A stretch of 62,663 bases of DNA from Candidatus Omnitrophota bacterium (GCA_041653595.1 JBAZFB010000008.1:1-62663); one strand, 5' to 3'. Positions 53,755 through 56,483 are shown, counted from the stretch's first letter. Notes: generated by a model not told the origin, from the letters alone. A program made the numbers and translations.

Positions 53755-53868
53755 GTTATGCCTTTAGTGCCATTCTATTTTGTGGTGCCGTACAATTGAA
53801 GTAGGGGTGGCTCTTTGCGCCCGTCCACCAATGTCTTATGTCGGAAGATAAAACGGCTATATGTTCCA

Positions 53869-54894
53869 TTAATTTTTTGCCATTATTTTGTTCACATATT
53901 CTATAAAACCGATTGGAAGATACTTTACTGCCCCAAATAAGCTTTTATAATTATTGATAGCATAGCTACCCTTTGGTTGATCTACAAATGTTACTTTTGG
54001 TTTTCTTGTCGACTCATTGAACCCATTCAATAATAAACACCTAATTTCTACATCTGCTTCTGGCAGAGAATACCCAATAAAAATAATCTCATTTGCCTCT
54101 GATATGCGTTCTTTTGACATGGCCCACGTTTCTTTTAAGATCCTATTTTCGTAAATTTTAAATTTTGTTGGCGTTACTATCAATGGTTCGTATTCACTGG
54201 TACAATTCTCGTTTGAACAGCATAATCTATATTCACTCCCAAGATATTTTGCTACACCTTTCTCGCCTACCGTTATATCTATCTCATCGCACCTTGGGCA
54301 ATATAACCAGTTAAGCGAACCATGAATTTTTAAAAGCTTGATATCTCCCCTGTTTATTTCAAACATGGGGGAATGCCCAGCTCTCATTGTGCCATCAGAC
54401 CAAGTTACTGGAAATATGTTTTTTCTCAATCTAAATCCATAATTAATATTGCGCCGTCTCGCAAGAGCATTGTCAATAACGATGTCGTAATTAGTTGAAA
54501 CAATGACGTCTTCTTTATTGACATTCTCAGCAAATTTATCCGTAACGTCCGAATCAAGGTTTTCCAAGGATTCTTTTAAAACGGCGCAAATTATCTTTAT
54601 AATATTATTCCTGACTTTGATTAATCCATCATAATTATATAATCTTATAGTAATCAATTTAGTACGTAAATTATAATCTATAAAACTCAGTATATCTTCA
54701 AGCCTTGGCTTTGTACTTTTATTTCTATGAAATATCCTATCTATAAATAATTTTGTATCTTCAATTTCGCTTTTTACGTCAGGGTAATGTGTACTATTAT
54801 TAAGCGCCGTATTAAGTAAATTTTCATTTAATGGCGCTTTTAATGAAACTGCTACTGTCGCACCCGCTCCTAAAAAATATACTTTCTTGTCCAT
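53869..54894 (-). CDS. SIR2-family (SIR2_2-like) NAD+-utilising protein with a sirtuin-type Zn ribbon; standalone
   Basis: 341 aa in an AT-rich islet. Motifs in SIR2 order: VYFLGAGATVA (GAG loop), VSTN135YDIVID, KIH191GS, Zn ribbon C199PRC202..C225C226SNENC231, and IFIGYSLPEADV. Confidence 0.75.
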   Translation of the reverse strand: MDKKVYFLGAGATVAVSLKAPLNENLLNTALNNSTHYPDVKSEIEDTKLFIDRIFHRNKSTKPRLEDILSFIDYNLRTKLITIRLYNYDGLIKVRNNIIKIICAVLKESLENLDSDVTDKFAENVNKEDVIVSTNYDIVIDNALARRRNINYGFRLRKNIFPVTWSDGTMRAGHSPMFEINRGDIKLLKIHGSLNWLYCPRCDEIDITVGEKGVAKYLGSEYRLCCSNENCTSEYEPLIVTPTKFKIYENRILKETWAMSKERISEANEIIFIGYSLPEADVEIRCLLLNGFNESTRKPKVTFVDQPKGSYAINNYKSLFGAVKYLPIGFIEYVNKIMAKN

Positions 54895-54959
54895 TCTATC
54901 TTTCTGCTAATATTTAATACCGCCGTATGACTAAAGTGGGGCAGGCATGGTAACATTAG

Positions 54960-56186
54960 CTAAAATTTTTTATCTTTAATCCATTCGTCAATCTTAGATA
55001 AAGCTTCTTCACCAGTCTTAAATGTCGGGGGATTAGCAATTGTATATTTTATAAGCCCCTCTTTTTCTGTGCCTTCTTCATATAAAACCAAGGATGGAAT
55101 TTCTTTTCCTTGTTGAGATCTTAAGTATGCGGCTATCGCTATTTCTTGATTAATCCAAACTGAGGTATCGTACAAGCCATTAAGTTTGTGCCTTTTATGT
55201 AAAATAGCTATAAAGCCTGCGCAATCGTTAAGATTCTTAAATATATGAGAATTTAAATCTCTTAGATCATTGGCTGTTTCAGCTAAAAAAACTCCTATAT
55301 TATTTTTTTCCAAAAGGATTTTTACTTGTCCTCCCAGCTCTATCTCTTCGGGAGTTAACTGTCCACAAGCAACAAAGATAAGTCCTTTGCGGTCTTTAGC
55401 TATTATATCGTCATGAACTTCTATTTCTGGATCTCTGGGATGCTCTTTCCTGCTTTCAGTTTCGTATTCACGTATAGAATCTGGTAATCTTACCTCAAGA
55501 AATGGCGCCTTACGCAATACCGCAATGTTTGAATAAATTGTTCTATCGATTTCTTTTAGGACGGGAGAAGAGATGTTTCCTTGCCTTTTTATGCTTTCTT
55601 TGTCTATAATATCGCAAACAATTGCGGCTTTTAAGAAGCCTAGACATTTTGTACTTGCATTATCTATTTCGAAAGAATTATATTGTTCATAATGCGCTAT
55701 CGAATTATCAATGTATTTTTTCTCTTCTTTAATTTCTTTAAGTTCTAATCCTTGTCCTTTATGTTTTTCAATTGTTCTACTCAAAAAACCTACTAATTTT
55801 TTGAGACCCCTGTATATGATTTCATATACTGATTTTTCTAATTCTACTTTGGCTCTGTAATCCCGTGGCCAATCTCTTCTCTCATTCAGTATCTCACTAG
55901 AAATATCGAGCTTTGGCAAAAACCCTTCCTTCCCCAATGAGACATAAACCCTGAATTTAATGTTGTTCTCTAGCGTATAAAAATAGTCTGTTTCTGCATG
56001 TTTTTTTATGGCGACTTCAAAATCATCAATTATGTCACGTCCAAAAGTAATCTTGATATCCTGATCTTGAGCTTTTACGTAGAAATCGTAACCCAAACTG
56101 CCTTCTGAATGCATACAGGCAACAATAAATTCGCTATCTAGTCCATTGATAAATTTCTCTATATATTTTATAGCGTTTTCATTCAT
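54960..56186 (-). CDS. Two-domain protein: unknown N-terminal domain (~265 aa) plus a TIR-like / nucleoside-deoxyribosyltransferase-like flavodoxin-fold C-terminus
   Basis: 408 aa, AT-rich. The C-terminus reads ..GLIFVACGQLTPEE..GVFLAE..CAGFIAILHKR..TSVWINQE348IAIAAY.., which follows the TIR pattern betaA (xFISY-like), betaB, betaC and SxWxxxExxxA. Nothing is recognisable in residues 1-265. Confidence 0.55.
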   Translation of the reverse strand: MNENAIKYIEKFINGLDSEFIVACMHSEGSLGYDFYVKAQDQDIKITFGRDIIDDFEVAIKKHAETDYFYTLENNIKFRVYVSLGKEGFLPKLDISSEILNERRDWPRDYRAKVELEKSVYEIIYRGLKKLVGFLSRTIEKHKGQGLELKEIKEEKKYIDNSIAHYEQYNSFEIDNASTKCLGFLKAAIVCDIIDKESIKRQGNISSPVLKEIDRTIYSNIAVLRKAPFLEVRLPDSIREYETESRKEHPRDPEIEVHDDIIAKDRKGLIFVACGQLTPEEIELGGQVKILLEKNNIGVFLAETANDLRDLNSHIFKNLNDCAGFIAILHKRHKLNGLYDTSVWINQEIAIAAYLRSQQGKEIPSLVLYEEGTEKEGLIKYTIANPPTFKTGEEALSKIDEWIKDKKF

Positions 56187-56205
56187 ATCTTATACCCAAA
56201 TAGTT

Positions 56206-56234
56206 ATTAATTGTTTTTATTTCCTTAATGTCTA
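56206..56234 (-). promoter_or_regulatory. Candidate promoter for the AT-rich two-gene islet
   Basis: Minus strand: TAGACA, 17 nt, ATTAAT. It lies between the tRNA-Asp terminator and the ATG at 56186. It is weak, and in AT-rich DNA such matches arise easily. Confidence 0.25.
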
Positions 56235-56245
56235 TACTATACCGC

Positions 56246-56279
56246 TCAAACAAAAAAGGCGTTAGTTTCCTAACGCCTT
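56246..56279 (-). terminator. Rho-independent terminator downstream of tRNA-Asp
   Basis: The minus-strand RNA is AAGGCGUUAG-GAAA-CUAACGCCUU, a perfect 10-bp stem. It is followed by UUUUGUUUG. Confidence 0.7.
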
Positions 56280-56333
56280 GGCTTCGTTCCTATTTGTGTA
56301 TTTTATCCATTTTTAAGACCTTCTGGTGAAAAA

Positions 56334-56412
56334 TGGCGGGCCCGACGAGATTTGAACTCGCGGTCTTCAGATCGACAATCTGACGTGCTAGACCAGACTG
56401 CACCACGGGCCC
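56334..56412 (-). tRNA. tRNA-Asp (anticodon GUC)
   Basis: Reverse complement GGGCCCG-TG-GTGC-AGTCTGGTCTA-GCAC-G-TCAGA-TTGTCGA-TCTGA-AGACC-GCGAG-TTCAAAT-CTCGT-CGGGCCC-G-CCA. Confidence 0.88.
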
Positions 56413-56430: not shown

Positions 56431-56483
56431 AAAAAAAGGGGTGTTGCTCCCGTGGGGAAACCAAGGTTTCCCCACGTAACCCC
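56431..56483 (-). terminator. Strong hairpin plus U7 tract inside the tRNA-Val/tRNA-Asp spacer
   Basis: The minus-strand RNA is GGGGU-UA-CGUGGGGAAACC-UU-GGUUUCCCCACG-GGAGCAAC-ACCCC-UUUUUUU. The inner stem is a perfect 12-bp inverted repeat at 56451-56476. Confidence 0.55.

Follow-up and report, generated by a model that had tools for sequence, protein, structure and literature searches.

An AT-rich islet of a Candidatus Omnitrophota bacterium pairs a divergent TIR-like protein with a stand-alone zinc-ribbon SIR2: a candidate anti-phage cassette

We analysed a stretch of 62,663 nucleotides from a Candidatus Omnitrophota bacterium (GCA_041653595.1, JBAZFB010000008.1:1-62663; this whole stretch is called the window below) and found that it contains a foreign, AT-rich, horizontally acquired islet of about 2.5 kb. 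The islet holds two co-directional genes: gene 1, encoding a protein of 408 amino acids (aa) in which a new N-terminal domain (N-domain) precedes a predicted divergent TIR-type core, and, 65 bp downstream, gene 2, encoding a SIR2 protein of 341 aa. In the immunity of prokaryotes and eukaryotes, TIR and SIR2 domains are the two main modules that consume NAD+, and the islet is probably an anti-phage cassette. It is uncertain that the two genes work together; the reading we put first, with a probability of roughly 0.45, is that the islet is a co-transcribed abortive-infection cassette in which gene 1 controls the downstream SIR2. Both open reading frames (ORFs) and their spacing lie exactly where a preliminary description of this DNA had placed them (Table 1).

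Gene 2 encodes a stand-alone zinc-ribbon SIR2

Gene 2 encodes a genuine stand-alone SIR2 of which the catalytic residues are intact. The Pfam model SIR2_2 (PF13289), which describes a sirtuin fold of the defence type, matched at 28.7 bits (cut-off 24.5, E 1.6e-6) and the SIR2 models of PADLOC matched with a best E-value of 2.6e-11. At E<=1 the Pfam table for this protein contained SIR2_2, SIR2 and two marginal hits and nothing else, and every model in the PADLOC table was named SIR2 or Aga_SIR2, except the candidate PDC-S21. The motifs, checked at their codons, are G9-A-G11 (the GAG loop), T134-N135-Y-D137, H191-G-S, G274-Y-S-L and the cysteines C199, C202, C226 and C231 of an inserted zinc ribbon; G9, G11, N135, D137 and the four cysteines are invariant in 37 homologues and H191 is conserved in at least 90%. 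We found 330 homologues of gene 2, mostly 335-390 aa long, and the best homologues of the two islet proteins had E-values as low as 1e-216 and 1e-141. Because both proteins have many homologues, the islet genes are not chance ORFs. The family alignment spans all 341 aa, the zinc ribbon being the only insertion, and neither a SLOG nor a Macro domain was detected in gene 2 (Pfam and PADLOC at E<=1, family alignment). The preliminary description, which saw here a stand-alone zinc-ribbon SIR2 with no room for a SLOG or other sensor domain, was right on both counts.

The gene 2 family profile found its best match among PDB sequences in 8w9l, the SIR2 of a Paenibacillus SIR2-HerA system (E 1.7e-8), the similarity covering no more than profile positions 20-196, the N-terminal half of the SIR2 fold; a second SIR2 of a SIR2-HerA system, human FAM118B and, very weakly, KomC followed in the ranking. 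We predict that gene 2 encodes an NADase.

The C-terminal part of gene 1 resembles a divergent TIR domain

The whole gene 1 protein matched nothing in Pfam, PADLOC, NCBIfam or the PDB sequences, in line with the large unknown N-terminus that had been noted before. An AlphaFold2 model, built with a 31-sequence alignment (mean predicted local distance difference test score, pLDDT, 82.7), showed the N-domain, a disordered linker (residues 250-266) and a beta-alpha-beta core running from betaA-alphaA to alphaE. Foldseek matched the C-terminal part only, to the TIR domains of TIR-STING (9lmq), SARM1 (8gni), SPARTA (8spo) and BtTir (7uxr) and also to a nucleoside 2-deoxyribosyltransferase (NDT, 6evs) and DNPH1 (8rps), all with probability 1.0, E-values of 2e-3 to 4e-2, about 145-160 aligned columns and target template modelling scores of 0.5-0.74. 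The viral library BFVD gave the same picture as the PDB, that is, generic matches to the NDT/TIR fold. The TIR-like C-terminus of the preliminary description thus does model as a TIR/NDT fold.

Sequence comparison linked the core more specifically to TIR domains. When the core alignment was compared by hhalign with the Pfam-positive TIR_2 tails of N-domain paralogues (P0160 (54.9 bits), P0168 and P0171), the probability was 92% and the E-value 5.7e-7; the core segment L-I-F-V-x-C-G-Q was paired with the betaA strand of TIR (v-F-I-S-Y), and S-S-V-W-I-N-Q-E with S-x-W-x-x-E. A hidden Markov model (HMM) made from those TIR_2 tails alone matched gene 1 at E 5e-6. The conserved positions of the core are F271, C274-G275-Q276, E281, A302-E303, H330, R332, S342 and W344-I-N-Q-E348, and F-x-x-C-G-Q, E281, A-E, L-H-x-R and S-x-W-I-N-Q-E are invariant in 19 diverse core members. 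E348, proposed earlier as the candidate catalytic residue, is invariant in these 19 and conserved in at least 90% of the wider 31-sequence alignment; since it is aligned to the W-x-x-E of TIR_2 domains, it is the counterpart of the catalytic Glu of TIR. On the strength of the structural model and these alignments, we assign the core to the TIR type as a divergent member.

Curated models miss this family. None of TIR, TIR_2, ThsB_TIR, DUF4062, CAP12-PCTIR_TIR and SEFIR matched gene 1 at E<=1 or any of 40 further core proteins; TIR_2 appeared in only 2 of the 19 core members (E 0.037), Pfam scans of the 19 and the 40 yielded no usable family, and the core profile found nothing among PDB sequences.

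The N-domain and the modular gene 1 family

The N-domain is well folded in the AlphaFold2 model, and it had no credible Foldseek match in the PDB or BFVD; its profile found nothing among PDB sequences. It does recur in other proteins. Pfam classified the C-termini of 44 N-domain paralogues with other tails as TIR_2 (15), pP_pnuc_1 (14), CAP12-PCTIR_TIR (5), TIR (4), DUF4062 (2) and SEFIR, ThsB_TIR and Nuc_deoxyrib_tr (1 each); the fusion to DUF4062 is exemplified by P0187 and that to pP_pnuc_1, a predicted nuclease with the Pfam name 'pPIWI-associating nuclease', by P0024-like proteins. Because it recurs in front of TIR_2, TIR, CAP12-TIR, DUF4062, SEFIR or nuclease domains, the N-domain looks like a sensor or assembly module ahead of interchangeable effector domains.

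The gene 1 family is modular and far larger than the first search showed: a word-indexed search gave 30 homologues, and an exhaustive search with the family profile gave 1,072 representative clusters at E<=1e-3, 662 of them at E<=1e-10. Among 172 family proteins (the first 30 homologues and the best representative hits) we tallied the architectures core-[other] (49), N-domain-[other] (40), N-domain only (21), N-domain-core-C-domain (17), core only (10), [other]-core-[other] (8), core-C-domain (7), [other]-core (7) and N-domain-core, the type found in the window (5). The C-domain that gene 1 lacks is an all-beta, immunoglobulin (Ig)-like sandwich (matches to GGA1-GAE, MSP, Caf1M and TRAP-like domains). 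A frameshift or split gene as the cause of the short gene 1 was rejected, as the C-domain profile found nothing downstream of any C-domain-less form. The idea that the C-domain is an enzymatic effector replaced by the SIR2 was also rejected; given its generic Ig-like fold, it is more likely a binding or assembly module.

A phage origin of the genes was considered and rejected as well: the gene 1 family has zero loci in IMG/VR, the SIR2 clade has only 4, and the BFVD hits are the generic ones described above.

Some members of the family have neighbours of their own. At one locus (L030 129-2102), a gene for a 279-aa core-family protein is followed after 87 bp by a gene for a 348-aa protein that matches, at E 9e-49, an HMM of the tails of the P0182 group of N-domain paralogues; as P0182 carries a Pfam TIR_2 domain, these are two TIR-type genes in tandem. 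The full-length proteins P0004 and P0006 both have a gene for 307-309 aa directly upstream, at 27-92 bp (L001 6985-7908, L015 923-1852 and L016 4044-4973), of which the L001 copy matches Lactamase_B; this gene may be a partner or simply part of a conserved host context.

A SIR2-type gene is retained behind gene 1 after cassette exchange

Evidence that connects the two genes comes from a locus (L006) that is syntenic with the window and encodes P0001, a protein with 82% amino-acid identity to gene 1. By blastn, window positions 56313 to 54911 aligned with L006 722-2128 at 84% identity, which covers the leader, gene 1 and about 50 bp past its stop codon. Between the homologous flanks, L006 holds unrelated DNA that encodes a SIR2-like protein of 310 aa and an ORF of 141 aa. 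The 310-aa protein is not orthologous to gene 2; it was aligned with the SIR2 family by hhalign (89%, E 2.3e-6, 227 columns) and keeps the GAG loop and the NYD motif. With a different SIR2-like gene in the same slot, a SIR2-type gene has been retained through cassette exchange behind the same gene 1, and this swap suggests that gene 1 and SIR2 are coupled in this lineage.

The other forms that lack the C-domain are in part comparable. Each of the five, counting that of the window, is followed by a gene in the same direction; the gaps measure 65, 70, 64 and 52 bp and, in L117, 225 bp, and those behind full-length forms 124, 138 and 318 bp. The sample of short forms is small, and two of the five have SIR2-type partners. 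The partner in L008 (435 aa) matched nothing in Pfam, PADLOC or the PDB sequences and the one in L007 had no significant match in Pfam or PADLOC; hhalign found no SIR2 similarity in the 141-aa protein of L006, the 248-aa protein of L007, the 435-aa protein of L008 or the 232-aa and 200-aa proteins of L117. The context of L117, L118 and L119 comes from short contigs and added little.

One of these loci has further genes of interest. In L007 (214-4760, encoding the C-domain-less P0016) a ThsB_TIR gene (201 aa) and a weak HEPN-like ORF lie upstream, and the 248-aa protein encoded downstream has a zinc ribbon and a single transmembrane helix; this looks like a dense defence context.

Proposed mechanism

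In the reading that we prefer, gene 1 would be a sensor-effector, of which the N-domain would detect an infection cue or drive assembly and the TIR domain, with E348 intact, would cleave NAD+, as judged from homology. In this lineage gene 1 would have lost its Ig-like C-domain and would work with the SIR2 encoded directly downstream, which would be a second, trans-encoded NADase switched on by contact or co-assembly with activated gene 1 protein. As a result NAD+ would be depleted and the infection aborted. The analysis shows the domain identities, the conservation of the catalytic residues, the foreign origin, the location of relatives in defence islands and the cassette swap; in this scheme we infer the NADase activities, the trigger, the coupling between both proteins and the mode of that coupling. 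The SIR2 of SIR2-HerA systems is switched on by assembling with its partner. We favour contact or co-assembly because gene 2 has no signal-binding domain and because this precedent concerns the nearest solved SIR2; a SLOG-type receptor for a diffusible signal is less likely.

A more far-reaching version, which we regard as unlikely, is that the divergent TIR, licensed by the new N-terminal sensor, activates the SLOG-less zinc-ribbon SIR2, the C-domain having been exchanged for a swappable effector in trans (SIR2, SIR2-like, a membrane protein or others). Activation would then proceed by templated co-assembly or through a small-molecule product that the core or the zinc ribbon of the SIR2 reads directly.

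Coupled genes or independent neighbours

Several observations weigh against the preferred reading. The model of the core is of moderate confidence (pLDDT 50-90) and its Foldseek E-values are only in the 1e-3 to 1e-2 range. The SIR2-like protein of L006 has a Tyr at the position of the catalytic His, with a His two residues upstream. A SIR2-type neighbour was found in only 2 of the 5 C-domain-less forms (the window and L006), and the partners of the other short forms are an unknown protein (L008), a zinc-ribbon membrane protein (L007) and two unknown proteins (L117). Using N-domain, core and C-domain profiles, we found no relative of gene 1, its core or the C-domain near the SIR2 clade in any of 80 genome loci, and no gene 1 relative is adjacent to the four closest SIR2 homologues in their six distinct places. 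Next to these homologues (56-65% identity) lie genes for an nSTAND3 protein, a DUF5128 protein and small unknown proteins; almost every gene tightly linked to a member of the SIR2 clade is a singleton, and some of these are housekeeping genes. From the side of gene 1, the full-length relatives P0004 and P0010 are stand-alone genes beside a type I restriction-modification (RM) system, OLD-like AAA_15 and UvrD-PDDEXK genes, and the N-domain-TIR_2 paralogues look stand-alone too. The pairing of gene 1 with a SIR2-type gene was seen only in the window and the syntenic L006, so the expectation of the preliminary description that homologues of the two genes are linked in other genomes largely failed. 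The defence role that it envisaged was supported by the surroundings of relatives: type I and type ISP RM, OLD-like AAA_15, UvrD-PDDEXK, nSTAND3 and ThsB_TIR genes are found near relatives of both genes.

These data make it quite possible that the two genes are separate defence systems of one gene each, which happen to be neighbours in a small integration hotspot. In that case gene 1 would be a self-contained sensor-TIR NADase, for which there is a single-gene precedent in Swarozyc, an anti-phage DUF4062 TIR-like NADase with an auxiliary domain (bioRxiv 10.64898/2026.05.01.722283), and the SIR2 would be a single-gene or autonomous NADase. That both families occur overwhelmingly without each other and that the SIR2 clade has no recurrent partner agree with such independence, as does the slot of gene 2, a recombination-prone cassette site. 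The fusions of the N-domain to a nuclease point the same way: as the C-terminal module acts like an effector, gene 1 could be complete alone. However, random filling of the slot would be unlikely to place a SIR2-type gene there on two occasions with the same gene 1 in front. No SIR2 was found in the other approximately 28 loci of the gene 1 family. Furthermore, the spacer between the two genes is tight, and neither a terminator-like nor a promoter-like site was seen in it on the minus strand; where the C-domain has been lost, the downstream genes are tightly linked.

A Thoeris-like system, in which the TIR of gene 1 makes an ADP-ribose-derived molecule that diffuses and activates the SIR2, after which NAD+ is depleted, seems doubtful to us. 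The combination of TIR and SIR2 is that of type I Thoeris, the catalytic Glu is conserved, and the varied genes behind the C-domain-less forms are reminiscent of the variable effectors found in Thoeris types I-XI (bioRxiv 10.64898/2025.12.03.692087). Of the Thoeris-like pair that the preliminary description envisaged, the TIR-type and SIR2 domains stood; the end-to-end alignment of a SIR2 with only a zinc ribbon inserted and the unconserved linkage speak against the rest, as the signalling would have no obvious receiver in a SIR2 without a ligand-sensing domain. Moreover, no Thoeris-named family was listed for either protein in the PADLOC and Pfam tables at the thresholds used, and the presence of the N-domain on a nuclease in 14 of the 44 paralogues fits an effector slot better than the slot of a signal generator.

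A non-defence role, with a deacylase (SIR2) and an NDT/DNPH1-like nucleotide enzyme forming a housekeeping or regulatory pair on foreign DNA, is highly improbable: the core does resemble NDT and DNPH1 folds and NCBIfam did give weak matches to NAD-dependent deacylases, but these scored 16-19 bits against cut-offs of 221-243, gene 2 is of the SIR2_2 class and is also recognised by the SIR2 models of PADLOC, the sequence-level links of the core go to TIR_2 and not to NDT, and both the patchy distribution and the low-GC DNA, with relatives in defence islands, argue for defence.

The neighbourhoods of the SIR2 clade included two arrangements of separate interest. In L009 (6001-11742; also in L010), a SIR2 homologue with 60% identity is followed after 21 bp by a gene for a 1,558-aa nSTAND3/AAA protein, and the pair directly follows a type I RM operon; it may be a split SIR2 and STAND (Avs-like) system with the SIR2 clade as effector in trans. 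In a distant branch of the clade in Peptostreptococcaceae and Clostridium (L075, L081, L084, L087, L088, L098, L103, L104 and L106), a gene for 226-243 aa lies downstream in all nine loci and a gene for 426-448 aa lies upstream in most. This block was the only recurrent neighbourhood that we saw for the SIR2 clade.

Position, composition and flanks of the islet

The foreign origin of the islet, already suspected in the preliminary description, is clear from its composition. The G+C content (GC) of 53821-56313 is 0.337, compared with 0.539 for the remainder of the window, and this is the sole 2.5-kb stretch with a GC below 0.45 across the 62.6 kb; single 60-nt lines within it range from 0.167 to 0.467. 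The composition break reported earlier was therefore real, but the 62% given for a host gene was too high, as the neighbouring host genes have a GC of 0.48-0.54.

On the upstream side, homology with L006 begins 21 nt downstream of the 3' end of the tRNA-Asp gene. The leader contains a terminator-like hairpin, of which the stem is identical in L006 and the loop is different. The preliminary description had taken it for the terminator of tRNA-Asp. A hairpin is indeed present, but it is conserved in L006, which lacks the tRNA, and so belongs to the 5' leader of the cassette; the tRNA terminator was rejected as the sole reading, since the hairpin travels with the cassette. It probably insulates the cassette from read-through of the tRNA genes. 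On the downstream side, the previously noted gap of 114 bp between gene 2 and the SemiSWEET gene was found, and homology with L006 resumes about 66 bp before the start codon of SemiSWEET. The far side of the islet was searched for a direct repeat of the 3' end of tRNA-Asp, and only short chance repeats were seen; no integrase was found with the islet. An Rfam scan gave two tRNAs and no other RNA element. Between tRNA-Val and tRNA-Asp lies a perfect 12-bp inverted repeat (CGTGGGGAAACC / GGTTTCCCCACG, with a 2-nt loop; 56451-56476), which probably serves the tRNA cluster as a hairpin for processing or termination.

Table 1. Features of the islet and its flanks (positions in the window)
Feature	Coordinates	Strand	Basis and remarks
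SemiSWEET gene, 88 aa	53488..53754	-	Host flank; PDB 4rng E 1.7e-19; 75% nucleotide identity in L006
Distal junction of the swapped segment	53821..53868	-	Homology with L006 resumes at 53820
Gene 2, stand-alone SIR2_2 with inserted four-Cys zinc ribbon, 341 aa	53869..54894	-	Pfam, PADLOC, homologues
Intergenic spacer, 65 bp	54895..54959	-	First ~50 bp conserved with L006; homology breaks just before the gene 2 start
Gene 1, N-domain and divergent TIR-like core, 408 aa	54960..56186	-	ORF; without the Ig-like C-domain of most close relatives
Divergent TIR-like core, residues 267-408	54963..55388	-	AlphaFold2, Foldseek, hhalign, HMM
E348 codon GAA, predicted catalytic Glu (helix alphaC)	55143..55145	-	Codon position verified
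N-domain, residues 1-250	55437..56186	-	Mixed alpha/beta and helical; AlphaFold2 pLDDT mostly above 90
5' leader of the cassette, AT-rich	56187..56313	-	blastn homology to L006 begins here
Terminator-like hairpin in the leader	56256..56279	-	Terminator scan; 10-bp stem, GAAA loop, T-run
tRNA-Asp(GTC)	56334..56412	-	Host flank; ARAGORN; Rfam tRNA 67 bits

Significance

The core represents a sizeable TIR-type family, with invariant C-G-Q and S-x-W-I-N-Q-E, that escapes the current models of Pfam and PADLOC; neither it nor the N-domain is recognised by the libraries used. Surveys built on TIR models probably miss this core family, for example a Thoeris-type census that started from recognised TIR domains (bioRxiv 10.64898/2025.12.03.692087). 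The N-domain, well folded over about 250 aa and without a detectable structural relative, precedes at least six different TIR-type domains or a nuclease, which makes it a candidate new module, widespread in occurrence, for sensing infection or for assembly. The cassette exchange in which a SIR2-type gene was kept offers a concrete case for control of a SLOG-less SIR2 by a TIR protein. If the TIR-to-SIR2 reading is true, it would amount to a new coupling logic; if the genes are independent, what remains is a small defence islet of the ordinary kind that adds one new single-gene candidate. The enzymology to be expected is conventional, and the two-component pairing is not conserved across genomes.

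Comparison with known systems

As the preliminary description had supposed, no named subtype fits the pair: features of Thoeris, Swarozyc, SIR2-HerA, SPARSA/SPARTA and DSR1/DSR2 each differ from those of the islet. DSR1 and DSR2 are proteins of about 1,000 aa that combine SIR2 with a large C-terminal sensor region, whereas gene 2 measures 341 aa, and no model named DSR1 or DSR2 was present in its PADLOC table. The islet shares with SPARSA and SPARTA the use of SIR2 and TIR as NADase effectors joined to a sensor module, and some N-domain paralogues carry the 'pPIWI-associating nuclease' of Pfam. However, no Argonaute gene flanks the pair, the islet combines both NADase types, and Foldseek found no match of the N-domain with APAZ-containing chains, 8spo being matched via its TIR domain only (147 columns).

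Two defining features of Thoeris are an effector with a signal-binding domain, for example SLOG in ThsA and Macro in type II, and a conserved association of the TIR gene with the effector gene. The islet resembles type I Thoeris in having adjacent genes for a TIR-type protein with a catalytic Glu and a SIR2 NADase, with abortive infection centred on NAD+ as the expected outcome; it differs in that gene 2 has neither SLOG nor another ligand-binding domain, in that a large accessory domain is found on the TIR protein and in that the pairing is not conserved across homologues of the islet genes. In the census of TIR signalling systems, which lists 29 putative Thoeris types, SIR2 is mentioned only as SIR2-SLOG (bioRxiv 10.64898/2025.12.03.692087).

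SIR2-HerA provides the closest solved relative of gene 2, and its SIR2 is likewise short and encoded by a separate gene. The difference is that no HerA ATPase lies beside gene 2, of which the only neighbours are gene 1 (with no ATPase or other Pfam match) and SemiSWEET; here the candidate partner is TIR-like. With Swarozyc the islet shares a TIR-like domain missed by classical TIR models, a conserved catalytic Glu, an accessory domain and a location of relatives in defence islands; the full-length relatives of gene 1 are also single genes, and the N-domain is fused to DUF4062 in P0187. DUF4062 (PF13271) itself matched neither gene 1 nor core-family members and is carried by only some N-domain paralogues. 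What sets the islet apart from Swarozyc is that the accessory domain of gene 1 is N-terminal and unrelated and that gene 1 is followed by a SIR2 gene.

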